Positions 7,518 to 39,708 of a stretch of 64,000 bases of DNA are shown piece by piece. Every line of letters begins with the position of its first letter. Position 1 is the stretch's first letter. The DNA comes from a virus (Duplodnaviria > Heunggongvirae > Uroviricota > Caudoviricetes): IMG/VR virus record IMGVR_UViG_3300042868_014220, one strand, 5' to 3'. The notes under the pieces were generated by a model. It searched no databases. It had not been told where the DNA came from and saw only the letters and a program-made list of their open reading frames with translations. A program made the position numbers and the translations under genes.

Positions 7518-7560
7518 GTATTAAATATATATTTTTAAATTCTGTTTGTCAATTTTTTTG

Positions 7561-7644
7561 CGGAAGGTGAGGGGTTCGAACCCTCGCATCATTTATAGAT
7601 GTACGGTTTAGCAAACCGCTGCGTTACCACTCTGCCAACCTTCC
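7561..7644 (-). tRNA. tRNA-Ser (GCT), type II
   Basis: 7-bp acceptor GGAAGGT/ACCTTCC, T-arm GAGGG-TTCGAAC-CCCTC, anticodon loop TTGCTAA, long variable arm. Confidence 0.65.
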
Positions 7645-7704
7645 TTGTATTATTACTGTTCCAAAATGAATAAAAAAATAGAGTTTTGGAACACTAATAA
7701 TTTT

Positions 7705-8181
7705 TTATCTTATTTTCCAGGCTCCGTTGATGTGTTTCTTCATTTGTTTACCATCGGCAAGGTTTCCGATTACAACACCATCTTTAATGGTAAACGCATG
7801 GCGATTAACAGTAACAATATAGGTCCCTACAGGATATCTTTTAATAAATGAACCCGTGGTTGTCCTCCTAAGAGTTTTCATACCTTTTACGGTTACATAA
7901 TATAACATTGTATTATGTTCTTCGGTAACGATTTCAATACTTTTACCGTTAATTTGTTCGTTGTTTTTAGATAACAAGTTTATTGTGCTTGCAAATCTAT
8001 AAACACCTTTTTTATTGTTTCTACAGAATTTTTCTTTTGTGAATTTGTGTGCAGAATCATAATCCATATCAGCTGCGGTTGCGATTGCTCTTACAACACA
8101 ATCATTATCTTCAGATTTTGCAATTACAGATTCTGATATTCCTTTGATTACTTCTCTTGATGATATATATCCCTTATTCAT
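7705..8181 (-). CDS. Hypothetical protein
   Basis: Protein-like ORF between tRNA-Ser and ferritin gene. Confidence 0.5.
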   Translation of the reverse strand: MNKGYISSREVIKGISESVIAKSEDNDCVVRAIATAADMDYDSAHKFTKEKFCRNNKKGVYRFASTINLLSKNNEQINGKSIEIVTEEHNTMLYYVTVKGMKTLRRTTTGSFIKRYPVGTYIVTVNRHAFTIKDGVVIGNLADGKQMKKHINGAWKIR

Positions 8182-8269
8182 GGTACAAAGATAAAGAAAA
8201 GATTTTAAACCGCAAAAAAAAATCCCACCGAATACTCAGAGGGATTTTACTTTAATGTATTTGTGTAGA

Positions 8270-8857
8270 TTAAAAATAAGTTTGCTCAAAGTATAAAACT
8301 TGGAATTTGTCAGTTTTACTTATAAGATTGGATGCATTGATTAAATCATTGTATTCAACTACGGCATCTTTTTGAATTTCTCTTAATTCTTGTAAAAAGT
8401 CAAAAGTTGTGATATCATCAGAAAAAACGGTATGAGAATCTTGATTGTATGCTTTCATTAAACTTAATTCCATTGTATATGCACCATATACGATTTCAAT
8501 TAAACCTGTGAATGTATGTTTTGGATTTGCAGCTGGAATTTGGGGGATAATGTTAAACCCTGTCATATAATCTTCAATTTTCTTTGCGTGGGTTAATTCA
8601 TCCAACGCTTCACTTTCAAAGAATGCTCCTGCTTTTTTGTAATTAGCATCGTTACACCAATTAGCTGCCGCTCTATAGAAATAATGTGCGGTATATTCAT
8701 CTTTAATTCTATCAGTTAATAGTTTAACTGTTTTGTCCGATAATACATATAACTTAGGTTCTTTAGATGAACTTAGTTTATTTTCACCAGACTTTTGTTC
8801 ATTCAACTTAATAGCTTTGAACAATTGGTCTCTTGTCATTGTGATTTTGTCTTCCAT
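8270..8857 (-). CDS. Ferritin-like iron-storage protein
   Basis: EYTAHYFYRAAANWC ... EALDELTHAKKIEDYM ... FDFLQELREIQKD pattern matches the bacterial ferritin di-iron site layout. Confidence 0.7.
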   Translation of the reverse strand: MEDKITMTRDQLFKAIKLNEQKSGENKLSSSKEPKLYVLSDKTVKLLTDRIKDEYTAHYFYRAAANWCNDANYKKAGAFFESEALDELTHAKKIEDYMTGFNIIPQIPAANPKHTFTGLIEIVYGAYTMELSLMKAYNQDSHTVFSDDITTFDFLQELREIQKDAVVEYNDLINASNLISKTDKFQVLYFEQTYF

Positions 8858-8890
8858 AACTATAAATACTACGAGTAATGAAAAAAATTG

Positions 8891-8962
8891 TAGCGACGGA
8901 AGGAATCGAACCTTCGACTTCTCGGATATGAGCCAAGTGTTCTTCCACTGAACTACATCGCC
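8891..8962 (-). tRNA. tRNA-Met (CAT)
   Basis: Cloverleaf parsed manually; anticodon loop CTCATAT; T-loop TTCGATT. Confidence 0.75.
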
Positions 8963-8969
8963 ATTTTTG

Positions 8970-9041
8970 TGGTTTTGAAAGGACTCGAACCCTCACTAAA
9001 AAATCCGTAATTTTACGTGCTATCCGTTACACCACAAAACC
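8970..9041 (-). tRNA. tRNA-Arg (ACG)
   Basis: Anticodon loop TTACGGA; T-arm GAGGG-TTCGAGT-CCTTT. Confidence 0.7.
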
Positions 9042-9045
9042 ATTG

Positions 9046-9117
9046 TTATCCCTTAAGGATTCGAACCTCAATTCATTGGCCCAAAACCAATTGTCCTGCC
9101 AATTAGACGAAGGGATA
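9046..9117 (-). tRNA. tRNA-Gln (TTG)
   Basis: Acceptor TATCCCT/AGGGATA; anticodon loop TTTTGGG. Confidence 0.75.
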
Positions 9118-9124
9118 ATTTTTG

Positions 9125-9206
9125 TGGGAGCAGTAGGACTCGAACCTACGAACTCAAAAGAGGGGACATTTACAGTGTCCTGCCATTGCCGCTAGACGAT
9201 ACTCCC
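9125..9206 (-). tRNA. tRNA-Tyr (GTA), type II (bacterial-type long variable arm)
   Basis: Acceptor GGGAGTA/TGCTCCC; anticodon stem-loop GGACA-CTGTAAA-TGTCC; 13-nt variable arm. Confidence 0.75.
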
Positions 9207-9279
9207 AAATAAGTTAAACTAACACCCTGACTCCTTTCGAACTTTGGGGGCTCGTATCATTCATTCTGTGTTAGTTTTG

Positions 9280-9352
9280 CACGCCTGATAGGAATCGAAC
9301 CTATAACACCTGGTTTTGGAGACCAGTGCTCTACCAATTGAGCTACAGACGC
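9280..9352 (-). tRNA. tRNA-Trp (CCA)
   Basis: Anticodon stem-loop CTGGT-CTCCAAA-ACCAG; canonical D-arm TAGCTCAATTGGTAGAGC. Confidence 0.8.
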
Positions 9353-9359
9353 GTATTTG

Positions 9360-9431
9360 AGGTCGGTACAGGAATTGAACCTGTGTAGATAGTTTTGCAG
9401 ACTACCGCCTAAACCACTCGACCAACCGACC
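9360..9431 (-). tRNA. tRNA-Cys (GCA), U73 discriminator
   Basis: Perfect acceptor GGTCGGT/ACCGACC; anticodon loop CTGCAAA. Confidence 0.7.
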
Positions 9432-9437
9432 TTATTG

Positions 9438-9512
9438 TGACCCCGCCAGGATTCGAACCTGGGACTCCCTAGTTAAAAGCTAGGTGCTCTAAACCAACTG
9501 AGCTACGAAGTC
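9438..9512 (-). tRNA. tRNA-Lys (TTT)
   Basis: Anticodon stem-loop CCTAG-CTTTTAA-CTAGG. Confidence 0.8.
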
Positions 9513-9518
9513 AAATTG

Positions 9519-9590
9519 TTGTCACGATAGGATTTGAACCTATGACCGCTTCCGTATCAGGGAAGAACTCTACCGCTGAGTTACGTGACA
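9519..9590 (-). tRNA. tRNA-Ile (GAT)
   Basis: Anticodon stem-loop CTTCC-CTGATAC-GGAAG. Confidence 0.8.
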
Positions 9591-9721
9591 ATTTATTAAA
9601 ATCAATTGTGGGTTTCCATTTCCACTCCGACAACTTCAGTCAATGTGATTTGTGGTAGTGTACCTCTACCTTAGACACTTCGGAACGACCCACTGTATGT
9701 GGTCTGTCGTTAATTGATTAG

Positions 9722-9803
9722 TGGTTAGAACAGGATTCGAACCTGTGACAATACAACCTTTACAGGGTGACATAACCTCTTTGCCATTACGTATTACCTA
9801 ACC
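9722..9803 (-). tRNA. Type II tRNA, anticodon probably GTA (second Tyr-like) with imperfect anticodon stem
   Basis: Acceptor GGTTAGG/TCTAACC, T-arm ACAGG-TTCGAAT-CCTGT, loop CTGTAAA, long variable region. Confidence 0.45.
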
Positions 9804-9808
9804 ATTTG

Positions 9809-9892
9809 CGGAAGCGAAGGGAATCGAACCCCCAATACGTTGCAGTACTACTTGTTTTCAAGACAAGCTCCTCGTCCATTCGGACCACTTCC
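9809..9892 (-). tRNA. tRNA-Ser (TGA), type II
   Basis: Anticodon stem-loop CTTGT-CTTGAAA-ACAAG; long variable arm. Confidence 0.75.
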
Positions 9893-9898
9893 AATTTG

Positions 9899-9974
9899 GG
9901 TGACTAACGGGAGTCGAACCCGTGACCTCTTGAACCACAATCAAGTGCTCTAAACCAACTGAGCTATAGCCAAC
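9899..9974 (-). tRNA. tRNA-His (GTG) with encoded G-1
   Basis: Anticodon stem-loop CTTGA-TTGTGGT-TCAAG; extra 5' G opposite C73. Confidence 0.75.
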
Positions 9975-9980
9975 ATGTTT

Positions 9981-10073
9981 GCTGATTAAAAAGGATTCGA
10001 ACCTTAATCCTACTCCCTATTGTCTTCGGTTAAGAATATCGTCGGGTGGAGTGCTCCATTACACTATAATCAA
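9981..10073 (-). tRNA. Atypical elongated tRNA-like gene (93 nt) with ~20-nt insert in anticodon/variable region
   Basis: Acceptor TTGATTA/TAATCAG, D-arm GTGT-AATGGA-GCAC, T-loop TTCGAAT intact; no canonical anticodon arm found. Confidence 0.35.
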
Positions 10074-10122
10074 TCGGATGCTTCGAATCATCCATTCTCA
10101 AGGTAATTAATCTTGAGTTTTG

Positions 10123-10232
10123 CAGTCAGGACAGGATTCGAACCTGTATGTGATTTGACATGCTTTTTTATAATGCTTCCTAAATCACTTATCCGCCTTC
10201 AGTTTTTGCGTCTACCATTCCGCCACCTAACT
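10123..10232 (-). tRNA. tRNA-Leu-like gene with ~27-nt insertion (110 nt)
   Basis: Acceptor AGTTAGG/CCTGACT, Leu-type D-arm TGGCGGAATGGTAGACGC, T-arm ACAGG-TTCGAAT-CCTGT; internal GTGATTT...AAATCAC hairpin. Confidence 0.4.
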
Positions 10233-10293
10233 AAATTCTAATTCTATACAGTCACAACATGGGACCCTATGAATTAGTAACAGTCTCACCTCG

Positions 10294-10384
10294 TAGTCAG
10301 TAGAGGATTCGAACCTCCCATCTATGTGGCTACCGTATTTGTGGTGACTCGAACACCGCCTCTAAGACTGACCAACATCCGACT
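10294..10384 (-). other. tRNA-like element with two T-arm modules (double-T-arm), no anticodon arm
   Basis: Acceptor AGTCGGA/ACTGACT; hairpins GGTG-TTCGAGT-CACC and GGAGG-TTCGAAT-CCTCT. Confidence 0.35.
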
Positions 10385-10511
10385 ATTTTGAAAAGATATA
10401 TGGTGTCGCTCCACAGCCTCTACAACCTAAGGATTTTGCTCAGAAGGGATATTATCCGCTCCGTACTTATCCGAGTTGCTAACCCTGTCCTTTCGAGACA
10501 GATATCTTTTG

Positions 10512-10584
10512 TGGTACGAACTGGAATCGAACCAGTGGCACAAGGATTTTCAGTCCTTTGCTCTACCTACTGAGCTACCATACC
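10512..10584 (-). tRNA. tRNA-Phe (GAA)
   Basis: Anticodon stem-loop AAGGA-CTGAAAA-TCCTT; D-arm TAGCTCAGTAGGTAGAGC. Confidence 0.8.
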
Positions 10585-10591
10585 ATTTTTG

Positions 10592-10663
10592 TAGCCCCTA
10601 CGGGAATCGAACCCGTCTTTCTAGAATGAAAATCTAACGTCCTAACCGATAGACGAAAGGGCC
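10592..10663 (-). tRNA. tRNA-Glu (TTC)
   Basis: Acceptor GGCCCTT/AAGGGCC... anticodon loop TTTTCAT. Confidence 0.7.
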
Positions 10664-10797
10664 AAATTGACTTTACCTTACAAAGTCTAAGTAGGTTTAG
10701 TTGCGGTCTCTCCTACCTGATGAAGGCTCTTTTTGTGATTAATCATCACAGGCACGTTATTCATCATTTTAACACGAAGCCAACGTGTTGCTCATCG

Positions 10798-10863
10798 TAG
10801 TCAATACAGGATTCGAACCTGCCCTTGGTAATTACTCCCGTGGTGCCGCTCCACTAATTGACT
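10798..10863 (-). other. Short (66 nt) degenerate tRNA-like element
   Basis: Acceptor AGTCAAT/ATTGACT, D-arm GTGG-AGCGGCA-CCAC, T-arm GCAGG-TTCGAAT-CCTGT; anticodon arm absent. Confidence 0.3.
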
Positions 10864-10891
10864 TCTCCAAGATAATTAGTCTTGAAGATTG

Positions 10892-10966
10892 TAGTCCCTG
10901 TAGGATTCGAACCTACGACCTATTGTTTGTAAGACAACCGCTCTAAACCAACTGAGCTAAGGGACT
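10892..10966 (-). tRNA. tRNA-Val (TAC)
   Basis: Anticodon stem-loop GTTGT-CTTACAA-ACAAT; perfect acceptor AGTCCCT/AGGGACT. Confidence 0.8.
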
Positions 10967-11039
10967 GTTTTTTCTAATATGTCAAAGAACCATTTTCTAA
11001 ATCAACGATACAAAGGTAATGTTATTTTCGATATAAACA

Positions 11040-11080
11040 AAAAAACCCCAAACTTTATTTACAAGTTCGGGGTTTTTATA
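11040..11080. terminator. Intrinsic terminator hairpin (aaaaccccaaacttt...aagttcggggttttt)
   Basis: GC-rich inverted repeat CCCCGAACTT/AAGTTCGGGG-like with T-run. Confidence 0.5.
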
Positions 11081-11279
11081 TTTTATTATTTCTAACTAAT
11101 TTTAACCTATTGTATTTACCGAACTCCAATTTCGCACATTGCGATACCAGCTACAAACTTCTTGTTGCTTAATAAACGACGACTTATGTTCCATTGATGT
11201 TCTCATTTTCTAATAATTATAACAATAATAGGAAAAGTTTCTTATTTGTCAAATATATTTTTCAGAGTATTTATAAAAG

Positions 11280-11702
11280 ATGAGAAATTTAAGACAAATT
11301 ATTAAAGAGGAATTATTATTAGAGAAAAAAATTGGTCAGATTAGAGCCTCTCTTGAAATTGCGTTTTTATTTGATGTTATTAGAACAACTCATGCACATA
11401 TTAGAACGACTAGAACAGGTATTGAAAATTACGAAAAAAGAGATATTGGAAATGACGAAATCAATGAACTTATTAATATGTCAAAAAGTGAAATTGCTGA
11501 AAAAATAGCAATGAGAGAAATTGTTCATGAACAAGACTTTGTAATAAAATCTTTAAGATGGCAGTTGGCATTAGCAATTAGAGCTATTCACGTAGATGGA
11601 ACTTATTGGGAATTACTTGTTAAGACTGTTTTCAGAGAATCCAAAGATAATCCATTTAAAGTTGGTGAGGGTCAATTAGTCATTTATTTAGATTTTAGAT
11701 AA
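11280..11702 (+). CDS. Hypothetical protein with N-terminal IIKEEL motif variant
   Basis: Promoter-like TTATTTGTCAAAT upstream; protein-like ORF. Confidence 0.5.
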   Translation: MRNLRQIIKEELLLEKKIGQIRASLEIAFLFDVIRTTHAHIRTTRTGIENYEKRDIGNDEINELINMSKSEIAEKIAMREIVHEQDFVIKSLRWQLALAIRAIHVDGTYWELLVKTVFRESKDNPFKVGEGQLVIYLDFR

Positions 11703-11890
11703 AAAAAGGATAACACTTGTATCTGAATCGTTCCCGTGTTACCCTTGGTACCCATGTGATTAAGCTTGTGTATCTGAATCGTTCTCCTCAATCACAGTAC
11801 AAAGATACAACAAAATTCCGAACCACAAAATTTATTCTATAATTTTTTTAATTGTCTTTAATGAATTGATTACTATCTTCTATTTATAGG

Positions 11891-12907
11891 TTGATGAAAA
11901 AAATTTTATTTATTCTAAAACAAAGAAACATCTATTCAAATGGCGTTTATTCAAACGTTGACAGTGGATTACAAAACTCGGCGAGATTTGTAAATGATAT
12001 GTTGGTTAAAAACAAAGTTGACTCTACACTAGTACAAGTGGTAGATAATAACGAAATCGACAAATATTGTACTATACACAAACCTGATGTTGTAATCATT
12101 GAAGCAATTTGGGTTGTTCCAAGTAAATTTGAGGTTTTAAAGAAACTACACCCGAATATCACTTGGATAATTAGATTACATTCTGAGTTACCATTTTTGG
12201 CAAACGAAGGTGTTGCAATGGAATGGTTAAAAGAATATGTAAAATACGATAACGTATTTATCGGTTCAAATTCAATTTATTTGATTGATGCCTTGTCTCC
12301 GTATTTGGGAACCAACATCATCTATCTACCAAATTATTATAAAGTAACAAGTAAAGAATCTGTAATAAAGGAAAATAATTATGGTGAGATAAATGTTGGA
12401 ATCTTTGGAGCAATAAGACCAATGAAAAATGCATTAACCCAAGCGGTTGCTGCAATCAATTATGCTAATATGAATAATCTAAAATTAAGATTACATATAA
12501 ACACGGCAAGAGTTGAACAAAAGGGTGAAAACGTATTGAAAAATTTAAGAGCTTTGTTTGTTGATACAAGACACGAATTAGTTGAACATGCATGGTTGAA
12601 ACATGAGGATTTTGTTAAATTGGTTGGGACAATGGATATCTGTTTACAAGTATCAATATCCGAAACCTACAATATTGTTGCTGCCGATGTAGTTAATCAA
12701 AGAGTTCCTGTTGTAACCACAGATGAAATTCCATTTGTTAATAGTTTTAGTTCTGTTAATTCTAACAAAAATGTTGAAAACATTATCTACACTATGAAGT
12801 TTAATCTAAGATTCAAAACTGTGTTAACCATCTTAAATAAGTTCTATTTGTTTGTAAATTCAAAAAGAGCTAAAATGGTTTGGATGAATTTCATCCATAA
12901 TTTTTAG
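11891..12907 (+). CDS. Hypothetical protein (338 aa)
   Basis: Long ORF; no motif recognised with confidence. Confidence 0.5.
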   Translation: MMKKILFILKQRNIYSNGVYSNVDSGLQNSARFVNDMLVKNKVDSTLVQVVDNNEIDKYCTIHKPDVVIIEAIWVVPSKFEVLKKLHPNITWIIRLHSELPFLANEGVAMEWLKEYVKYDNVFIGSNSIYLIDALSPYLGTNIIYLPNYYKVTSKESVIKENNYGEINVGIFGAIRPMKNALTQAVAAINYANMNNLKLRLHINTARVEQKGENVLKNLRALFVDTRHELVEHAWLKHEDFVKLVGTMDICLQVSISETYNIVAADVVNQRVPVVTTDEIPFVNSFSSVNSNKNVENIIYTMKFNLRFKTVLTILNKFYLFVNSKRAKMVWMNFIHNF

Positions 12908-12988
12908 TACCTTGGGTCGGACTCGAACCGACACGACTTTCGCCACAAGTTCCTAAGACTTGAGTGTCTACCATTTCACCACCAAGGC
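12908..12988 (-). tRNA. tRNA-Leu (TAG), type II
   Basis: D-arm TGGTGAAATGGTAGACAC, anticodon stem-loop CAAGT-CTTAGGA-ACTTG, long variable arm. Confidence 0.75.
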
Positions 12989-12991
12989 ATT

Positions 12992-13083
12992 TCATTATCG
13001 CTTCAGCCACATCGGGAAAGACGCCTCCCCCGCGTTGTTTAAGTGTATATCTTGCGTCGTATCTCACTGAGCTACGATAATGA
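12992..13083 (-). other. tRNA-like element with 9-bp acceptor stem and non-canonical T-loop (possible pseudo-tRNA)
   Basis: TCATTATCG...CGATAATGA terminal helix; internal TAGCTCAGTGAGA D-arm-like segment. Confidence 0.3.
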
Positions 13084-13087
13084 TTTG

Positions 13088-13161
13088 TAGTCCCAGTAGG
13101 ACTCGAACCTACGACCTACGGTTTAGAAAACCGTTGCTCTATCCAGTTGAGCTATGGGACC
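13088..13161 (-). tRNA. tRNA-Arg (TCT)
   Basis: Anticodon stem-loop ACGGT-TTTCTAA-ACCGT. Confidence 0.8.
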
Positions 13162-13168
13162 ATTTTTG

Positions 13169-13248
13169 TACCTGGGGAGAGACTCGAACTCTCATTCACA
13201 AGGAACTGAGGCTTAAACCCAGCGTGTCTACCATTTCACCACCCAGGC
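13169..13248 (-). tRNA. tRNA-Leu (TAA), type II
   Basis: Anticodon stem-loop CTGGG-TTTAAGC-CTCAG; D-arm TGGTGAAATGGTAGACAC. Confidence 0.7.
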
Positions 13249-13250
13249 GA

Positions 13251-14024
13251 CTATAGTTTAAAACTCTCTTCAAACAATGTATGACTTTCGTTTTCTTCTG
13301 TATTCATTGTATGTAGAAGTAATATGGTTGAATTGTTAAAATTAAAAATAAACCTACCATCAGAACCTTCGTTGATTTCCCAACCACCAAAATGAGATTC
13401 TAATTCTCTATAACACCAATCTTCAATTCCTGCAGGAACAGCATCACCTGTTTCCTCAAATGAACCTTCAATATATCCAGAATCACCACCACCATTATAT
13501 GGTATAGTCAAAATACCATCTTCAGGAACTTCAATCTCTTTCATATCTGTTTCCATCCAACGCTCAAATCTTTCGATATCATCAGCAGCATCATATTCAA
13601 CTGAGTTTTCATTACCTCTACCATAATAAGAAAACCAATATACAACAGTAATTTCTCTATTAGGACAATCAATTTCAAGGTCAATTTTTTGATAATTTAC
13701 CATATCAATATCCACAAAATCTATTGATTCAAACTTACCTGATTTTATAACCTTGTCCATAATTTTTTGTAAAATTGGAGTTAGATTTTCAGGTATGTCT
13801 GCTCTATAGTTATTTTCAAAATGAGTAACGTATTTCCATTTAATATCATCTGATGTTAGTTCTTGTTGTTGAATATCTAATTCAAAACCTACCACACCAA
13901 CACTCATACCTAATGAACCAAGGTAGTTACATATCCTATTAAGATATTTTTTTTCGTCTAATGTTAAAATTCCATTCATAATTATAAATATCAGTCTTCT
14001 ATTTTCATTGTCCTTAGCATCCAC
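13251..14024 (-). CDS. Hypothetical acidic protein
   Basis: Protein-like ORF. Confidence 0.5.
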   Translation of the reverse strand: MDAKDNENRRLIFIIMNGILTLDEKKYLNRICNYLGSLGMSVGVVGFELDIQQQELTSDDIKWKYVTHFENNYRADIPENLTPILQKIMDKVIKSGKFESIDFVDIDMVNYQKIDLEIDCPNREITVVYWFSYYGRGNENSVEYDAADDIERFERWMETDMKEIEVPEDGILTIPYNGGGDSGYIEGSFEETGDAVPAGIEDWCYRELESHFGGWEINEGSDGRFIFNFNNSTILLLHTMNTEENESHTLFEESFKL

Positions 14025-14338
14025 TGAGGTCTTTTATTCTCTAATAAATTGTCAATCCACTCCTTTGCGGATGGGATATAGTTATTACAATCTTCTCTGA
14101 CGTGTTGTTCACCGACATAACGAGTGTAAACTATTTTCCCATCACTATTGGTAAATTCGGACCCAAATTTCTTCTCCATCTCAAAAATACCTTCACTATG
14201 GTGTCTAAACATTCTGTGTAAAGAATCCGCAATCCAACCTTTTGTTTCATCCAACCATTCGTGTAAATGGATGTAATCTTCAGGTTTTCCACCAAACTTT
14301 TTAACCGAACTTTTTGCGTGTATGTTAGGATGTGCCAT
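13991..14338 (-). CDS. Hypothetical His-rich protein
   Basis: ORF; possible metal-binding His residues. Confidence 0.45.
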   Translation of the reverse strand: MAHPNIHAKSSVKKFGGKPEDYIHLHEWLDETKGWIADSLHRMFRHHSEGIFEMEKKFGSEFTNSDGKIVYTRYVGEQHVREDCNNYIPSAKEWIDNLLENKRPQWMLRTMKIED

Positions 14339-14345
14339 AGTTTAT

Positions 14346-14801
14346 TTAATAATCTTTTCCTTTGTGAAGTAAGTAAGTTGCGTAATATTTTAAGTCCGTT
14401 CCTTGATAATAAATTACAACATAATAATCTAAATCTCCTGAGGGAATATAATTAATCCATATCTTGTCTCCGCACTCATTCACAGCTGAAATTAATCTTA
14501 AACAATCACGAGTACTATCTTCATCCCACTCTTCAATAATTGAAAACTTCATAACAATACCTGCCCTTGTCTTTGAAAACGTAAATGAAGAGTCAGTTAG
14601 GTTAACGTGAAAGTGGTCATATTCCCATTTAGTTTTTTTCTTCGGTTTTCTAATCTTAACATTTTCTGCATCTTCAATCATTTTTTTTGAATTTTTGAAT
14701 TGGTATCTGTATATGGAATCCGCTTCTAAATTCTGACCATTTGCTTCGGACAATCCGAAGATAAATAGGAACATAAGTCCTATGATAAATTTTAACTTCA
14801 T
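14346..14801 (-). CDS. Secreted/lipoprotein-like hypothetical (start set at MKLKFIIGLMFLF signal peptide)
   Basis: Upstream part of track ORF overlaps tRNA-Ala; internal Met followed by hydrophobic signal. Confidence 0.5.
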   Translation of the reverse strand: MKLKFIIGLMFLFIFGLSEANGQNLEADSIYRYQFKNSKKMIEDAENVKIRKPKKKTKWEYDHFHVNLTDSSFTFSKTRAGIVMKFSIIEEWDEDSTRDCLRLISAVNECGDKIWINYIPSGDLDYYVVIYYQGTDLKYYATYLLHKGKDY

Positions 14802-14815
14802 ATTATTTTTTTTTG

Positions 14816-14890
14816 TGGAGACAATGGGTATCGAACCCACCTCAAAAACATTGCAAGTGTTTTTCGCCAAGCCTTGGTACATTTGCCCCC
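14816..14890 (-). tRNA. tRNA-Ala (TGC) with G3:U70
   Basis: Acceptor GGGGGCA/TGTCTCC with G3-U70 wobble; anticodon stem-loop AAACA-CTTGCAA-TGTTT; atypical D-arm. Confidence 0.6.
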
Positions 14891-15077
14891 GTTGTTTCTT
14901 AAATGGAATCGCCATTTGTTGCTTTGTAAATTGCAATAACCAAACCAACCACCCAACCAACAATAACTAAAGTGATTAGGACATCTTTCATTGATAATTT
15001 TCTTAACATATTCATACTATTTTTTTATTTAGGTCACAAAGATACTATAAAATTCTTAATTACCAAATTTATTTTTG

Positions 15078-15160
15078 AGCCTCCTGACGGATTCGAACCG
15101 CCGCGTCCTTACGAAACCTGATTACAAGTCAGGTGCAATCAACCACTATGCGAAGGAGGC
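15078..15160 (-). tRNA. Type II-length tRNA with apparent anticodon TGT (Thr) - identity ambiguous
   Basis: Acceptor GCCTCCT/AGGAGGC, anticodon stem-loop CCTGA-CTTGTAA-TCAGG, ~14-nt variable arm, T-arm GGCGG-TTCGAAT-CCGTC. Confidence 0.45.
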
Positions 15161-15169
15161 ATGTTTTGG

Positions 15170-15241
15170 CGGTCTATGCGGGAGTCGAACCCGCCTCACT
15201 ACCGTGACAAGGTAGCATCCTAGCCGATGAACGAATAGACC
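15170..15241 (-). tRNA. tRNA-Asp (GTC), CCA encoded (15167-15169)
   Basis: Anticodon stem-loop CTACC-TTGTCAC-GGTAG; acceptor GGTCTAT/ATAGACC. Confidence 0.75.
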
Positions 15242-15464
15242 AAATTTCCCCACCCTGAGATTATGGATGAGTGGATTTTAACGGTTTAGTTTTCTTAAAA
15301 ACAAACACATTAGTGTCTTACCACATGAAACTATAAATCAACACTACTGGGAGGAATTGTGTCAGTTCCTTGGTCCCAAGACCCCCTCTGTAAAATCGTG
15401 GAGGGCTACAACTACATCATTGTTAAGAAACGATGCCAAATCTGTGAGTATCTCTTACTCATTG

Positions 15465-15538
15465 AGCGAGTAGTCGGTCTCGAACCGACCCTATTTCACA
15501 TTGGAAGTGTGATGCCATACCAACTAGGCGATACTCGC
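15465..15538 (-). tRNA. tRNA-Gly (TCC)
   Basis: Acceptor GCGAGTA/TACTCGC; anticodon stem-loop TCACA-CTTCCAA-TGTGA. Confidence 0.7.
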
Positions 15539-15973
15539 AATTTTTAATTTAAAATGTAAATCTCTATGACAATTAGAACACAAAATATCACACTTATCAA
15601 TTTCATTTAATATTTTTGTCTTATTTCCTCTCCTAATTAAAGTAGAAACATCAATATCTTTTTCCTCAGGATTTCTGTGATGAAAATCTAAAACCCAATA
15701 TCTATTCTCACCACACACCTCACATTTTAATGTTTTTTTATAATCCGTAAACCATTCAATTATTGATTGTGTAAATACTTTTGCTTTATCAATATATTTT
15801 TTTTTATTTTTTTCATAGTGTTTTTTTCTATAATCACTTTGACATTTTCTACAGATATGTTGAAACATTTTTTCTTTTCTATCATATCTCGATGCGAAAT
15901 GGATATCATCCAACGGCAATTCTAACTCACATTTAGGACATATTTTTATTTTCATATCTATAAATACTTCCAA
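15524..15973 (-). CDS. HNH homing endonuclease
   Basis: Zn-finger CPKC...CRKC plus LDFHHRNPEEK...CSNCHRDLH HNH motif. Confidence 0.75.
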   Translation of the reverse strand: MEVFIDMKIKICPKCELELPLDDIHFASRYDRKEKMFQHICRKCQSDYRKKHYEKNKKKYIDKAKVFTQSIIEWFTDYKKTLKCEVCGENRYWVLDFHHRNPEEKDIDVSTLIRRGNKTKILNEIDKCDILCSNCHRDLHFKLKIASIA

Positions 15974-16006
15974 ATTATAAAAAAACTTGGAAGTGTTAAT
16001 TATTTG

Positions 16007-16090
16007 CTGGCACGGTAGGATTCGAACCTACGGTGTGGTTGCCCAGTCAGGTTAACAGCCTGATGCTCTCGGCCTCTAAGCGACGTACCA
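16007..16090 (-). tRNA. Type II-length tRNA with apparent anticodon GTT (Asn) - identity ambiguous
   Basis: Acceptor TGGTACG/CGTGCCA, anticodon stem-loop TCAGG-CTGTTAA-CCTGA, ~14-nt variable region. Confidence 0.45.
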
Positions 16091-16097
16091 ATATTTG

Positions 16098-16170
16098 TCG
16101 AAAGTGTTAGATTCGAACTACGCCCCAACCTCCCAAAGGTTATGTGCTACCTGACTACACCACACTCTCG
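16098..16170 (-). tRNA. tRNA-Pro (TGG), weak T-stem
   Basis: Anticodon stem-loop TAACC-TTTGGGA-GGTTG; T-loop TTCGAAT. Confidence 0.55.
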
Positions 16171-34707: not shown

Positions 34708-35334
34708 ATGAATAAAATACAAGTAACACAACCAACATTTCTAATCAATTTAGATAATCCAACAGAAACTAGTTATGTACCTATGGAAGGTAATTGGAAA
34801 ACAATCACATCTCAAACATACCTAAATGGGTTTCCTGAAATAAAGGATGATGAGATTCTTTATGTCTATAAAAATAATAGAGGTTATATCTATAAAAATA
34901 ATATAGGTTATATTGCAATAAGTACAAATAACGAAAAATATAATCAGATTATTGATGATGTTTATAAATCTTATATAAAATCATTTTTTGAAGGACAATT
35001 AAAAGAAAATTATATATCAAGTGGTTATGATTTTGACGATTACTATACAGCTATAATGGATGTTCAAAATTTTTTAGGATTGCCTGGACCAATATCTCAA
35101 AAAGAATTCATCAACAAAATCAAAACAGATGGGGATTTTTCTAAGGAGTGGGGACTAAAGATTGAGGAAAGAGAGTTGAGTTTGGAAGAGAGAACAAAAT
35201 ATAAAAAGAAAAGAGACGGTATCGTTCGTACTTTTGCATCGTATACTCACCAAATGTTAGACGGTTCAAATATCCCAACCAAACTAATCACAATAACATA
35301 TAAAAACGAAACAATAGAAAGTTATGAAAATTAA
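34708..35334 (+). CDS. Truncated ThyA-derived paralog (no catalytic residues)
   Basis: KEFINKIKTDGDFSKEWG...RELSLEER...NIPTKLITITYKNETIESYEN aligns to insertion segments of thyA 36420-37559. Confidence 0.55.
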   Translation: MNKIQVTQPTFLINLDNPTETSYVPMEGNWKTITSQTYLNGFPEIKDDEILYVYKNNRGYIYKNNIGYIAISTNNEKYNQIIDDVYKSYIKSFFEGQLKENYISSGYDFDDYYTAIMDVQNFLGLPGPISQKEFINKIKTDGDFSKEWGLKIEERELSLEERTKYKKKRDGIVRTFASYTHQMLDGSNIPTKLITITYKNETIESYEN

Positions 35335-35536
35335 TAGACCAAAAGATGGTGACTATAGATATAAAACTAAGTTTTTATGGTTCCCTAAAAGATTTGATGG
35401 CGGGTGGTATTGGTTAGAAATTGTAACCATTAGACAAGTATATTTTTATTATGGACTAATCCCAGGATGGTATAATGTGTGTTTGTCAAACCCAGAATCA
35501 GGTCTCCCAATAAGTATTGACCCCATTAAAAAATAG
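35324..35536 (+). CDS. Small hypothetical protein
   Basis: ORF starting in ATAGAAAGTTATGAA context. Confidence 0.4.
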   Translation: MKINRPKDGDYRYKTKFLWFPKRFDGGWYWLEIVTIRQVYFYYGLIPGWYNVCLSNPESGLPISIDPIKK

Positions 35537-35542
35537 AAAGTT

Positions 35543-35872
35543 ATGAATAAAGAACAACAAGAATTGGTGGGTGATGTTTATAAGAACTATGAAAAATGGT
35601 GGAAATCTTACTCTCCAGGTGGTGCTCCAATACCACTATCAAAAGAAAAATTCATCAACAAATGTAAAAACGATACAGAGTTCTCTGGAAGGTGGGGATT
35701 AAAGATTGAAGAACGAGAATTAGATATGATGGAAAGATGGAAGATAGCCGACCTAACACCTAATATGGAAGAATTTGATTTTGCTAATTATATGTGCGAC
35801 AAACACAATATCCCAACCAAACTAATCACAATAACATACAACAACAAAACAATAGAAAGTTATGAAAATTAA
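35543..35872 (+). CDS. Truncated ThyA-derived paralog 2
   Basis: DVYKNYEKWW...EKFINKCKNDTEFSGRWGLKIEERELD...NIPTKLITITYNNKTIESYEN. Confidence 0.55.
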   Translation: MNKEQQELVGDVYKNYEKWWKSYSPGGAPIPLSKEKFINKCKNDTEFSGRWGLKIEERELDMMERWKIADLTPNMEEFDFANYMCDKHNIPTKLITITYNNKTIESYEN

Positions 35873-36059
35873 AATAGATGGAGGTGATTTACTAAGACAT
35901 ATGATGTTTTGGGGTGAAAAGACAGATGATGACTGTATTAAAATGGCAACTAATGATGAAGGTGAATTAAATGCTGAACAAGCTCTTATTAATATGTTGG
36001 AGAGAGATAATGCAGTAGAATTCAATAAGGAAGTTATTGAAGGATTAATGAATCTTTAA
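35862..36059 (+). CDS. Small hypothetical protein
   Basis: ORF. Confidence 0.4.
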   Translation: MKIKIDGGDLLRHMMFWGEKTDDDCIKMATNDEGELNAEQALINMLERDNAVEFNKEVIEGLMNL

Positions 36060-36150
36060 AAAAATATGAATAAATTAGATAAACCCCAACCACCTGCACC
36101 ACCAAAAGATAGAATCTATATAGAATCTTCTTGGTTAGAAACCATAACAT

Positions 36151-36423
36151 TTGGGTTATACAAAACTAAAAAATACCATAGAAAAGATGAACAAATTAGA
36201 TAAACAAGATTTAACTTCAGGTATAATTTACGTACCATATATAATTGAAACAACATCAACTTCAATTAACAACACTACTGTATGGTATAAAAATAAATGG
36301 AAAAATCTATGGTTAAAGATAAAGTTCTTCTTTAAAAAACCTGACGAGTTAAAACGATTTGAAAAATACTCTAAAAAATTAATAGACCCAAAATTTTACC
36401 AAGAAATAAAAATTACAAAATGA
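36151..36423 (+). CDS. Small hypothetical protein
   Basis: ORF. Confidence 0.4.
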   Translation: MGYTKLKNTIEKMNKLDKQDLTSGIIYVPYIIETTSTSINNTTVWYKNKWKNLWLKIKFFFKKPDELKRFEKYSKKLIDPKFYQEIKITK

Positions 36424-37559
36424 ACAACCTAGATAAACAATACACAGACCTACTCCAAGACATATTGGATAATGGTGTAACTAAAAAAGATAGAACAGGA
36501 ACTGGTACAATAAGTGTATTCGGTAGACAAATACGTCATAAAATGAGTGATGGTTTTCCATTACTTACAACTAAGAAGATGCCATTCAAAACAATTGTAA
36601 CTGAATTGTTATGGTTTTTAAGAGGTGATACAAACATTAAGTATTTGGTTGATAATAACTGTCATATTTGGGATGGTGATGCTTATAAGAATTATTGTAA
36701 GCACTTTATGGATGAATACTTAGAAAAAAATAAATTAGGTGAGTCTTATAGAAATAGTTTAAGACCATATCCAATAGAAAAATTCATCAACAAAATCAAA
36801 ACAGATGATGAGTTTGCTAAACAGTGGGGTGAATTAGGTCCAATTTATGGTAAGCAATGGAGAAAATGGACTAAAAAGAAAATGTATCTATCAACAGATG
36901 GTTCATATGAGAATATCTACGATGAAGCTGACCAAACTGTTATTGACCAAATATCAATTCTAATTAACGACCTTAAAACAAATCCAGATTCAAGACGATT
37001 AATGGTTAATGCTTGGAATGTAGGTGAATTAGACCAAATGGTGCTTCCTCCTTGTCATTATGGATTTCAGGTTTATACAAGAGAGTTGAGTTTAGATGAG
37101 AGAGTACAGTTATTAGGAGTAGAAAAAATCAACACAACTGACGCTGGTTATTATGAACATAGCTACGCTAAATTAAAAGTAGATGAAGAGAATATTCCAA
37201 CCAGAGCAATCTCTTTAATGTTCAATCAACGTTCAGTAGATACATTCTTAGGTTTACCATTCAACATAGCATCATACGGATTATTGTTAGAAATCATTGC
37301 TAAAACAGTTAATATGGTTCCCGATGAATTAATTGGTAATTTAGGAGACATACATCTTTACCTTAACCATATTGAACAAGCAAAGGAACAAATTGGTAGA
37401 GAACCATTTGAGTTATCTAAGTTAGTAATAAATTCAGGTAATGAAAACTGGCATTTGTTAGACATAGATGAAATTATTAATACCTTTAATACCGATATTA
37501 CATTTAAAGTAGATGGTTATCAGTCCCACCCCACAATTAAAGCACCATTAAGTAATTAA
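36420..37559 (+). CDS. thyA: Thymidylate synthase (ThyA) with two large lineage-specific insertions
   Basis: GTGTISVFGRQIRH, ELGPIYGKQWRKW, LPPCHYGFQVY (Cys nucleophile), LGLPFNIASY, C-terminus HPTIKAPLSN. Confidence 0.85.
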   Translation: MNNLDKQYTDLLQDILDNGVTKKDRTGTGTISVFGRQIRHKMSDGFPLLTTKKMPFKTIVTELLWFLRGDTNIKYLVDNNCHIWDGDAYKNYCKHFMDEYLEKNKLGESYRNSLRPYPIEKFINKIKTDDEFAKQWGELGPIYGKQWRKWTKKKMYLSTDGSYENIYDEADQTVIDQISILINDLKTNPDSRRLMVNAWNVGELDQMVLPPCHYGFQVYTRELSLDERVQLLGVEKINTTDAGYYEHSYAKLKVDEENIPTRAISLMFNQRSVDTFLGLPFNIASYGLLLEIIAKTVNMVPDELIGNLGDIHLYLNHIEQAKEQIGREPFELSKLVINSGNENWHLLDIDEIINTFNTDITFKVDGYQSHPTIKAPLSN

Positions 37560-37562
37560 ATT

Positions 37563-38186
37563 ATGAAATTAAATTCAAATATTCCATCCTTTAAAGGATT
37601 TGTTAAAAAGTCTTATTTTACTAAAAATGAAGAAGACGCAAACGATTATTATGGTGTTTATGTTTTTGGCATTCAATCTTGTGGTGGTCAAATACTTACC
37701 TTTCACGTTATGACTGACACTGGTATGTTGAGAAGTAGAGTACCCTTATCCGAAATCTACACAAAAATTCCGACAAATGATATCCCCTTCAACTTCAAAC
37801 AATTGTGGGATTGTTTCAGTGAAAACGTTTCTGTTATTGAATATGATTTTTTAGCGTTTCACAGAGCTCAGATAGTATTAAGAGACGGAACAAAAGTTTG
37901 GGGTACATATATGTTTACCGTTGATTGGTATAATAATCCATATAGTGATGAACCATCTGATTATAAATGTGGACATATATTTGAATCAGATGAGGGGTAT
38001 TTGTTGTGTCAACCAAATAATAGACTTTTTTGGAGGGATAGTAATTGGGTAACCAAATCACTACCTGAAGATTTAAAACAATTTAAAGTTGATACAGAAA
38101 TTATATCAGTTGAAAATCAATCTGATAGGTGGGTAACTGAAGATAGTAATTCGTTTTACTATGATATTAAAAATAATAATGTATAG
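37563..38186 (+). CDS. Hypothetical protein encoded by putative inserted cassette at thyA 3' end
   Basis: Flanked by synonymous duplicate of thyA last 14 codons (37518-37559 vs 38187-38230). Confidence 0.5.
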   Translation: MKLNSNIPSFKGFVKKSYFTKNEEDANDYYGVYVFGIQSCGGQILTFHVMTDTGMLRSRVPLSEIYTKIPTNDIPFNFKQLWDCFSENVSVIEYDFLAFHRAQIVLRDGTKVWGTYMFTVDWYNNPYSDEPSDYKCGHIFESDEGYLLCQPNNRLFWRDSNWVTKSLPEDLKQFKVDTEIISVENQSDRWVTEDSNSFYYDIKNNNV

Positions 38187-38572
38187 AATTATCAATCACA
38201 CCCAACAATCAAGGCACCATTAAGTAACTAAAAGATAATGTTTAGTTAATATGTATGTTAATCCCACACCATACTTATTAAAAATCGGTAAATTATCTAC
38301 ATACTATACATTATATTATTAATTACAAGTCCAAGTAAAGAACCATTATCTGGTGTTAAAATTGAATTGGTCGGCACAAATAAAACATACTATACTAATC
38401 TAAAAGGACAGGTATCAATTCCGTATAATTCTAATATTAGTTTGAGTTACATATCCTATAGAACAAAAATAATAAACAAGGATAGTATAAAACCTTTTAT
38501 TATATTAACGCCTAGATAAAAAATATGAAATTAAGTTTGGAACATTCCAAACTTTTTTTGTATATTCGCATT

Positions 38573-38920
38573 ATGGAAATTAAGAAAATTACATATAAAG
38601 AAGTTGAACATGAGTTTTTTAAATTAAAACCTGATTTGTTAGATGAATTTGCAACTTATTATGGTTGTTTTATTAAAGAAGAATTGGTCGGTATTGTTTC
38701 ATATGTGGAACATCCTGCAGTAATTTATCTTTGTCACGCTTATGTTAAAGAAGAACATAGAAGTAAAGGTATCTATAAATTATTGTGGCATTACAGGGAT
38801 TCTAAAATTGCTAAAACTGAGAAAGTGGTATATGCTCACTGCAATGTTGATAGTTTGAAATATTTCATCAACAACGGATACAATATTGATAAAGCCCTAT
38901 TTAAAGTAGTAAAAAGATAA
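38573..38920 (+). CDS. GNAT-family N-acetyltransferase
   Basis: VKEEHRSKGIYKLL (R-x-x-G-x-G/A-like motif A). Confidence 0.5.
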   Translation: MEIKKITYKEVEHEFFKLKPDLLDEFATYYGCFIKEELVGIVSYVEHPAVIYLCHAYVKEEHRSKGIYKLLWHYRDSKIAKTEKVVYAHCNVDSLKYFINNGYNIDKALFKVVKR

Positions 38921-38924
38921 TACT

Positions 38925-39119
38925 ATGTTTAGGGTTTTAATTTTGATGTTATTAATAAGTTCGTGTGAAAAAGACGACTTTATTGGTAATAGTGTTGAAC
39001 CTATAAAGGTTACTAAATCAAATAAAATATATTATAGAAAAAGAAAATTTAGGTTATTTAAGGGAAAGACATATAAAGTTGCAAAATATCCACGGAAAAC
39101 TTCCTCATTAAACGATTAA
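38925..39119 (+). CDS. Small lipoprotein-like protein
   Basis: LLISSC lipobox. Confidence 0.4.
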   Translation: MFRVLILMLLISSCEKDDFIGNSVEPIKVTKSNKIYYRKRKFRLFKGKTYKVAKYPRKTSSLND

Positions 39120-39708
39120 CCTTTTCCAATTCAATTTCCATATCTTTAGAGTCCATATATTTCATAACTCCTTGAATCATTTTGTTTTTGGATTCATCTG
39201 CCATTTCTAAAATCTCTTGGAATGTATCATTATCTTCTTCATCTTCACCATAATATCTTTCAATCCATTCTTTACCTGAATATAAAAATGGTGCTGATTC
39301 GAACATATTAACAGGGCTAGCTTCCCTTAATTTCATTAAAAATTTTCTTAAAAATCTCCAATCAAAATTTTCAAATATTTCAGGATTGTCACTAAAGAAA
39401 TTATATTCTGTAGATAACGTATTTGTCTTAGCCTCTTCAATAGGTTTTGGTTCCTCTTTAATCCATCTATCAGTTGCACTTAATAACCCCAACGTACTTC
39501 CGTTATCCCAATCAACAGTAATTATTTCACTATCAACCTCAAATGGGTCTCTAGTTGTACGAGATACGGTTCCAGTAGTGCCCATTGGGACTGATGTTTC
39601 TCCATCCATATGAAGACACATAACCCTATCACCTTTTGTTAATTTTGGATTTAACTCTTTTCTTGGTTTACTCATAACAATAAATATCTTTAGTATATTT
39701 ATTATCAT
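39058..39708 (-). CDS. Hypothetical protein
   Basis: ORF. Confidence 0.5.
   Translation of the reverse strand: MIINILKIFIVMSKPRKELNPKLTKGDRVMCLHMDGETSVPMGTTGTVSRTTRDPFEVDSEIITVDWDNGSTLGLLSATDRWIKEEPKPIEEAKTNTLSTEYNFFSDNPEIFENFDWRFLRKFLMKLREASPVNMFESAPFLYSGKEWIERYYGEDEEDNDTFQEILEMADESKNKMIQGVMKYMDSKDMEIELEKVNRLMRKFSVDILQLYMSFP

Follow-up and report, generated by a model that had tools for sequence, protein, structure and literature searches.

Introduction

What leaves the end of a gene standing a second time, with its peptide unchanged, behind the next gene downstream? The question is raised by thyA, the thymidylate synthase gene of a virus of the Caudoviricetes (IMG/VR record IMGVR_UViG_3300042868_014220), within a stretch of 64,000 nucleotides that is referred to below, at its full length, as the window. 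The last 14 codons of this thyA recur on the same strand behind the following open reading frame (ORF), which encodes 207 amino acids and is termed ORF207. A first-pass annotation made from the letters alone had read this pattern as the footprint of a mobile cassette of the homing-endonuclease type. We conclude instead that the second thyA tail is probably the scar of an uneven recombination between two related phages, and that no self-mobile element need have left it.

The repeated thyA tail

The window thyA (36420–37559, plus strand) is an intact gene for a thymidylate synthase of 379 amino acids belonging to the long, insert-bearing phage family (Pfam PF00303, E = 2e-95; phrog_160). Its alignment to the PF00303 (Thymidylat_synt) profile spans positions 1–265 of 266, the full length, and the protein shares 57–75% amino acid identity with those of 80 IMG/VR loci. 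The last 14 codons, which form the functional tail (copy 1; 37518–37559, plus strand; TATCAGTCCCACCCCACAATTAAAGCACCATTAAGTAATTAA), encode YQSHPTIKAPLSN followed by the stop codon. Precisely the same peptide and stop are encoded by copy 2 (38190–38231, plus strand; TATCAATCACACCCAACAATCAAGGCACCATTAAGTAACTAA), a non-functional stump that has a stop codon before it and lacks a start codon, and that we attribute below to the thyA of a second parent. The first-pass annotation had reported a duplication of the thyA 3′ end near thyA, and this is confirmed for the 14 codons at 37518–37559 and a second copy downstream; that second copy is real, but had been placed at 38187–38230, which is off by 1–3 nt, the nucleotides 38187–38189 being an extra AAT.

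The two copies are identical at 36 of 42 nt, with a longest identical run of 14 nt, and an independent repeat search also recovered the pair, as a direct repeat with a spacing of 672. When a 24-nt core of the tail was searched with up to three mismatches just two sites were found, against 0.00 expected from 100 shuffles, and the repeat is therefore not a product of chance. All six differences between the copies fall in third codon positions and are synonymous, as had been noted before and as was upheld on re-alignment; for six random substitutions the probability of leaving the tail peptide unchanged is 3.8e-5.

Two parental arrangements and the joint between them

The gene order in the window is thyA, ORF207, a 12-nt stub, tail copy 2, a 21-nt spacer, a disrupted copy of a 74-amino acid ORF (ORF74), a hairpin, a GNAT acetyltransferase gene and a small lipoprotein gene. 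Among related loci (each designated by L and a number) two arrangements bear on this order. In type A, thyA is followed by ORF207 and a small lipoprotein gene, with ORF207 directly after thyA in L123, L131, L132 and L133, a 57-amino acid ORF between the two in L122, and the order thyA, endonuclease gene, stump, ORF207 in L009 and L124–L130. In L122, L123 and L130 a 66-amino acid lipoprotein-like gene (beginning ATGATTAGAATT) has a start codon that overlaps the 3′ end of ORF207. No copy of the thyA tail was found 3′ of ORF207 in L122, L123, L131–L133, L009 or L124–L130, nor downstream of ORF207 in any of 80 IMG/VR ORF207 loci, except as the end of a complete thyA; this count also speaks against the possibility, raised as a refuting case in the first-pass annotation, that the tail copy is a conserved regulatory element. 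In type B the order is thyA–(ORF74)–GNAT–lipoprotein gene. The GNAT gene begins 3–4 nt past the thyA stop in 11 loci (L085–L089, L091, L102, L104, L105, L107 and L115), an endonuclease gene lies between thyA and GNAT in L096 and L108, and L084 has ORF74, GNAT, the lipoprotein gene and the remainder in that order. The nearest cultured relatives are the Flavobacterium phages vB_FspM_immuto, with approximately 72% nucleotide identity in thyA.

The alignments show the window to be type A on its left and type B on its right. Tail copy 1 is joined to ORF207 by TAA-ATT-ATG, as in type-A relatives, this junction being identical in L123 and in L009 and L124–L130, and L131–L133 having the same direct adjacency with slightly different spacing. 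Positions 37518–38190 are 90–92% identical to L009, L122 and L123, whereas the thyA bodies are only 73–78% identical, and in L009 and L123 this unit begins exactly at the Tyr codon. On the other side, 38282–38880 is 89–96% identical to L084, and beyond it identity falls to 62–82%. The last type-A sequence is the 12-nt stub ATGTATAGAATT (38179–38190, plus strand), which corresponds to codons 1–4 of the type-A small lipoprotein gene, overlaps the end of ORF207 and aligns with ATGATTAGAATT, the start of the 66-amino acid gene of L122, L123 and L130. A chimeric mini-ORF of 14 codons (38179–38223) spans the stub and part of copy 2. The window tracks L130, L122 and L123 through AGAATT (ending at 38190), and it tracks the thyA tails of L086, L088 and L107 from AATTATCA (38187) on. 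In the alignment the recombination joint is thus the 4-nt microhomology AATT (38187–38190, plus strand) that is common to the type-A and type-B parents, with codon 4 of the A lipoprotein gene on one side of it and, on the other, the Tyr codon that precedes the thyA stop of B by 14 codons. On the two flanks of the joint the window continues collinearly in different relatives (L122, L123 and L130 on the one side; thyA tails and then L084 on the other). Two partial duplicates stand at the joint, the 42-nt thyA tail and the 12-nt lipoprotein-gene start, and each is also present within a complete gene: for the stub this is the small lipoprotein-like gene of 64 amino acids at 38925–39119 (plus strand), its intact counterpart, homologous to L122 2901–3101 and L084 3390–3581, whose lipoprotein identity is suggested by an L-I-S-S-C motif. 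The anatomy of the locus, both parental gene orders, the position of the joint and the figures on the silent differences are direct observations.

Three further observations concern these loci. At 1021–2756 L084 carries a different, short-type thymidylate synthase (276 amino acids; NF002495, 323 bits against a cut-off of 327 bits) with an I-TevI-like endonuclease gene after it in the same position, which suggests that thyA itself has been swapped between lineages. A module of approximately 48 amino acids (..YTPEER.ELLK.AMG...GGG.SEYYE.YKI..) occurs as an in-frame thyA insert between 'QIGR' and 'EPF' in L009 (940–2241) and L054 (3989–5251), and the same module is the free-standing 57-amino acid ORF between thyA and ORF207 in L122 (2114–2287). 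Lastly, the V-stop-N ahead of copy 2 was considered as thyA 'VEN' in which the Glu codon had mutated to the TAG, and this was rejected, as ORF207 of L130 natively ends in the same way, its TAG falling inside the start of the overlapping lipoprotein gene.

The gene between the two tails

ORF207 (37563–38186, plus strand) is a member of a phage family labelled 'PurM'/'ferredoxin' (phrog_3704, E = 1e-39), with 2112 homologues at E ≤ 1e-5 in a large protein collection and homologues in 114 phage records that comprise cyanomyoviruses, pelagiphages and Flavobacterium phages. At the amino acid level it is 99% identical to its counterpart in L122 and 95% identical to those in L123–L130, and its TAG stop is native, being the same in L130. 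That the ORF has no recognisable motif, as was first stated, holds for Pfam, NCBIfam and the PDB (including a PDB profile search), none of which gave a match, but not for phrog_3704 or for its many homologues. Since those searches returned no nuclease or DNA-binding domain, phrog_3704 being the sole match, we do not class ORF207 as a homing endonuclease. Nor does the proposal that it is mobile cargo of the homing-endonuclease type survive, this being a widely conserved phage gene without a nuclease domain that, in its clade, normally follows thyA without a second tail; the notion of ORF207 as a mobile nuclease is thereby corrected. An AlphaFold model built from 25 close homologues had a mean pLDDT of 37 and was unusable. 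The family is labelled 'phosphoribosylaminoimidazole synthetase/PurM' in GenBank and 'ferredoxin' in RefSeq and PHROGs, labels that look unsupported because no PurM, ferredoxin or other domain was found by the Pfam, NCBIfam and PDB searches.

The silent differences

The first-pass annotation had proposed a recoded terminus that makes the new junction immune to re-cleavage. Among 96 thyA alleles, in which the tail peptide is strongly conserved, two alleles with an identical tail peptide are on average 6.1 nt apart, and the window copies are 6 nt apart. Each window copy has three minority codons and both are of the GCA-CCA (IKAPLSN) form that is typical of endonuclease-free loci. No special recoding is needed, because both copies have three minority codons and their differences match the allelic mean, and the six silent changes are best read, from these comparisons, as the ordinary divergence of orthologous thyA alleles whose protein was kept under selection in two separate lineages. 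A protective recoding of copy 1, with its rare G/C-ending codons CAG, TCC, CAC and CCC, was considered separately and rejected, as copy 2 also has three minority codons.

Tail stumps and endonuclease genes at related loci

The thyA family comprises at least 586 loci, and stumps were surveyed in 83 of them (the window, immuto and 80 IMG/VR contigs). A second tail copy was found downstream on the same strand, 206–1663 bp away, in 13 of the 83 loci, with two such copies in L054, and in none was a copy found upstream or on the opposite strand. As a control, among 746 ORFs of at least 100 amino acids in these loci, a downstream copy of the ORF's own tail was seen only for thyA (13 loci) and for three ORFs of one paralogue family. 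The stumps range in length from 24 to >63 nt and all end on the right at the stop codon; the edges of those in L006, L009 and the window lie 42–48 nt before the stop. The genes between thyA and stump are mutually unrelated, comprising small ORFs, a metallophosphoesterase, a PEP-synthase-like gene and, in L006 and L009, GIY-YIG homing endonucleases, and in L042 and L054 the scars are stacked. Two cultured phages with complete genomes, immuto 2-6A and 3-5A, each have a different small ORF after thyA and then a thyA-tail stump. Beside a hypervariable region, the thyA tail is the stretch best conserved at the nucleotide level.

In L009 and L124–L130 an I-TevI-like GIY-YIG gene lies between thyA and the displaced tail, and L006 is similar. 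The L009 endonuclease satisfies TIGR01453 (79 bits, cut-off 56) and has an I-TevI zinc finger, NUMOD3 and an I-TevI DNA-binding domain, and an N-Y-K/Q microhomology marks the point where its gene and the stump are fused. Related GIY-YIG genes are found directly after thyA in L033, L046, L051/L053, L072, L080, L096 and L108, and directly before it in L036/L037 and L074. Of 90 non-redundant loci, nine have a GIY-YIG gene directly after thyA. An altered IKAPLSN tail (IK[M/F/L]PLSN, IKADLSN or IYFPLSN) occurs in eight of the nine loci with an adjacent endonuclease gene versus five of the 81 without one (Fisher p = 1.4e-7). This correlation is what would be expected if the enzymes target DNA encoding IKAPLSN and the carriers are protected. 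A match of the L009 endonuclease C-terminus to the L054 thyA was dropped, as it was carried almost wholly by the shared tail.

As a separate observation, an AT-rich motif, ATATTTATA(T/A)TAAA, recurs immediately ahead of the following gene at many loci (e.g. L006, L008, L012, L042, L051, L069 and L081–L083), both downstream of thyA stops or stumps and in front of endonuclease genes; none was noticed behind copy 2 of the window. This motif may be a phage promoter.

Origin of the second tail

On the collinearity described above, copy 1 is probably the thyA tail of a type-A parent (A) and copy 2 that of a type-B parent (B). These parents would have been two related, collinear phage genomes with a different gene after thyA (ORF207 and the lipoprotein gene in A; (ORF74), GNAT and the lipoprotein gene in B), and, on the simplest reading, a single unequal, illegitimate crossover would have joined A to B through the AATT microhomology, falling four codons into the lipoprotein gene in A and, in B, at the Tyr codon that precedes the thyA stop by 14 codons. 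The product would retain A's complete thyA and ORF207 along with B's ORF74, GNAT and all that lies downstream, gaining genes from both in one step, and it would be left with two useless stubs, the 12 nt of the lipoprotein-gene start and the 42 nt of the thyA tail. The event was probably recent, since the stump still reads perfectly, without a damaging change, and so appears to have had little time to decay. The earlier picture of an insertion that keeps the host gene intact thus stands in so far as the functional thyA ends in the terminus of one allele and the displaced terminus lies behind the next gene, but not as regards a discrete, self-contained cassette, the right edge being arbitrary.

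What started the exchange can be suggested only tentatively: a double-strand break in the 3′ end of thyA, made by I-TevI-like GIY-YIG enzymes, is one possibility. Such a break would have been repaired through thyA homology on the left and, the two phages having different genes downstream, through microhomology alone on the right. Support for this view comes from the structure of L009, with its endonuclease gene fused to the stump at a microhomology, and from the stump edges of L006, L009 and the window, 42–48 nt ahead of the stop. Broader and more doubtful still is the idea that the last approximately 15 thyA codons are a recurrent, endonuclease-cut landing pad in the present group of aquatic Bacteroidota phages, on which arrays of genes separated by scars, as in L042 and L054, are built. 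Each break would then be mended with DNA of a phage whose downstream genes are different, so that a new block arrives behind thyA and the old tail is pushed downstream.

Several points weigh against the recombination scar and the history proposed for it. Neither parent is present in the collections, the backbone matches are just 73–82% identical and both parents had to be pieced together from mosaics. In AT-rich DNA, 4 nt of microhomology say little in favour of one pathway of joining or another. The stump edges vary from 24 to >63 nt across loci and so define no single cut point, and the survey needed the last seven residues to be nearly intact, which makes its count of 13 loci uninformative as to the conservation of the stumps. 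Moreover, no endonuclease gene of the tested families was found in the 64-kb window, where tblastn with the L009 and L006 endonucleases gave no match, so that we infer both the break and its cause.

Alternative explanations

The geometry of a replacement terminus followed by a displaced terminus is also that of an autonomous homing-endonuclease-type cassette, in which a recoded thyA terminus and ORF207 inserted together into thyA and protected the junction from re-cleavage. Genuine endonuclease versions of this structure exist in L009 and L006, and the unit 37518–38190 is common to L009 and L123 at approximately 90% identity, starting exactly at the Tyr codon. For the window we nevertheless hold such a cassette to be quite unlikely: ORF207 has no nuclease or DNA-binding domain and comes from a family of >2000 proteins, the gene follows thyA without a second tail in the ORF207 clade, the right edge contains 12 nt of a neighbouring gene and a 4-nt microhomology, and the silent changes amount to ordinary allelic divergence, both copies encoding IKAPLSN as at endonuclease-free loci. 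The direct repeats that flank ORF207 would equally be left by a Campbell-type homologous integration, in which a circular molecule of tail and ORF207 enters by a single crossover in the conserved thyA tail. Such a route would draw on the tail being the best-conserved stretch beside a hypervariable region, and on a published suggestion that gene fragments in phage endonuclease islands are recombination substrates (PMC10055350). However, the 12 nt of the lipoprotein-gene start that separate ORF207 from copy 2 would not be left by a crossover within the tail, the copies share no identical run of more than 14 nt, and the uniqueness of the joint in viral and metagenome collections gives the proposal no support, so that we regard this origin as improbable. 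Once formed, the structure could still move by a Campbell-type route.

The remaining explanations have very little probability in our judgement. A tandem duplication within one genome, with later divergence of the copies, would account for a direct repeat 672 nt apart, but the non-coding copy would then have been hit at all codon positions, which sits badly with six synonymous changes out of six (P = 3.8e-5) and with the collinear homologues that the two sides of the joint have in different relatives. We find it scarcely more credible that copy 2 is functional, either as a translation-initiation or regulatory sequence for the next gene or as a read-through extension of ORF207, with which it is in frame after the TAG. 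The type-B thyA tail does lie directly upstream of the next start codon, but none of the 80 IMG/VR ORF207 loci has a downstream tail copy other than the end of a complete thyA, no suppressor is present among the 23 tRNAs of the window and no Rfam match was found, and copy 2 precedes a 3-codon ORF and the disrupted ORF74. An assembly chimera of two co-occurring phage genomes could be entertained for a window whose joint was not found elsewhere in the viral and metagenome scans; it is nonetheless hard to credit, because a graph misjoin requires a long shared k-mer, whereas the joint offers no more than 4 shared nt and the longest identical run of the two tails is 14 nt, a misjoin at the tail would not duplicate the tail, and the same kind of stump is present in the complete genomes of the cultured phages immuto 2-6A and 3-5A.

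Other features of the locus

Downstream of copy 2, which in the window precedes a 3-codon ORF, lies a degenerate copy of ORF74 (38253–38519, plus strand). Its N-terminal part is broken by stops, with an early stop after eight codons and approximately 40 extra nt, and from 38282 it shares 89–96% nucleotide identity with L084, where ORF74 is intact (2760–2984); the window copy is probably a fresh pseudogene. A terminator-like hairpin followed by a T run is present at 38533–38554 (plus strand), and the GNAT acetyltransferase gene (Pfam PF00583) follows at 38573–38920 (plus strand), with 93–96% nucleotide identity to L084 and 62–82% past 38880. Between thyA and GNAT no integrase or recombinase was found, ORF207 and the degenerate ORF74 being the only ORFs there. 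Two exact-pattern scans of viral sequences and one of metagenomes found neither the exact joint (AGAATT joined to ATCAA) nor an empty-site allele. Positions 36000–39200 gave no Rfam match at E ≤ 1 and thyA is one continuous full-length ORF, so that no group I intron is present, and a sigma-70 promoter scan gave no enrichment over shuffled sequence.

Upstream of thyA, the ORFs at 34708–35334 and 35543–35872, both ending in 'TIESYEN', share a 66-nt 3′ end of 95% identity and are far more diverged in their other parts. They flank a 70-amino acid ORF (flanked stretch 35324–35536), and the family is also found in L006 (2525–3561). The pair has the tail-repeat layout seen at thyA, but here the second copy is a whole paralogue. 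A 208-amino acid upstream ORF (window 34957–35325 versus thyA 36678–37247) is collinear with two stretches of ThyA, its residues 84–149 matching ThyA 87–137 (E = 1e-8) and residues 147–206 matching ThyA 213–276 (E = 2e-5); the match has a 25-nt perfect run and omits the catalytic region. From these similarities, the conserved upstream ORFs look like partial paralogues derived from thyA. A cluster of 23 tRNAs occupies 7560–16170 on the minus strand, with no suppressor among them, and read-through of the ORF207 TAG into copy 2 was set aside as unsupported on that count.

Significance and comparison with known systems

The scar is of a known kind, and in the literature searched thyA has not been described as a locus for such scars. 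The window locus represents an untrimmed intermediate of phage mosaic evolution in which both parental orders, the joint and the microhomology can be read directly, and in which the phage acquired a gene block without loss of thymidylate synthase function. The recurrent scars at the thyA end and the I-TevI-like genes beside them form a natural data set on endonuclease-driven gene gain where the downstream genomes do not match, with the thyA tail encoding IKAPLSN, as opposed to IK[M/F/L]PLSN, as a candidate target site. If the landing-pad view were true, the site would be an integron-like place of gene capture run by homing endonucleases rather than by an integrase, and its scars could later act as homology arms that make blocks portable.

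In the model of Hendrix, illegitimate recombination between phage genomes makes mosaic joints. The window has such a novel joint close to a gene boundary, where homology is slight or absent and partial duplications remain untrimmed. Unlike the usual Hendrix joints it preserves the untrimmed intermediate, with both parental orders readable, and the same gene end has been hit repeatedly. The element e14 and phage 21 integrate in the 3′ end of E. coli icd and bring a replacement terminus. Here too there is a replacement 3′ end with mostly silent differences and a displaced native 3′ end, but the window has no integrase and no identical att core (6 of 42 nt differ), and the inserted unit is one ordinary gene. 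I-TevI is associated with the intron of td, the thymidylate synthase gene of phage T4, and the GIY-YIG enzymes of the window's relatives, with their I-TevI-type zinc finger and DNA-binding domain, likewise lie beside a phage thymidylate synthase gene. In contrast to td, thyA is uninterrupted and has no intron, and the relatives' enzymes are free-standing, encoded downstream, and absent from the window.

Free-standing homing endonucleases are also responsible for intronless homing in T4. In the homing endonuclease gene islands (HEG-islands) of phage ICP1, endonuclease genes lie at exchange boundaries with fragments of essential genes nearby, for which a role as recombination substrates has been proposed (PMC10055350). 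Like these systems, the relatives of the window have endonuclease genes that adjoin a conserved essential gene bordering on a variable region, polymorphism of the putative target site in the thyA alleles of carriers, and gene fragments at exchange boundaries. They differ from HEG-islands in that the thyA scars are always the same piece, the tail, and can stack (L042, L054), and the window in having no endonuclease gene at the locus, cleavage of thyA by the relatives' enzymes being only predicted.

The closest analogue is the mobile endonuclease ORF (mORF) in fungal mitochondria, which brings a foreign C-terminus and displaces the native one, as in atp6 of Allomyces macrogynus and in atp6, atp9, cox2 and nad3 of Glomus (PMC3630166), with native and incoming ends that sometimes differ only silently (PMC3630166). 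The window differs from mORFs in that no endonuclease gene separates the two ends, the right edge is an arbitrary microhomology joint in a neighbouring gene, and the host is a phage and not an organelle. Yet as with mORFs, the window thyA is kept intact by an incoming in-frame 3′ end, the native 3′ end survives downstream and the differences between the two can be silent. In L009, L124–L130 and L006 the likeness is complete, a GIY-YIG gene lying between the two ends and sometimes in frame with the stump.

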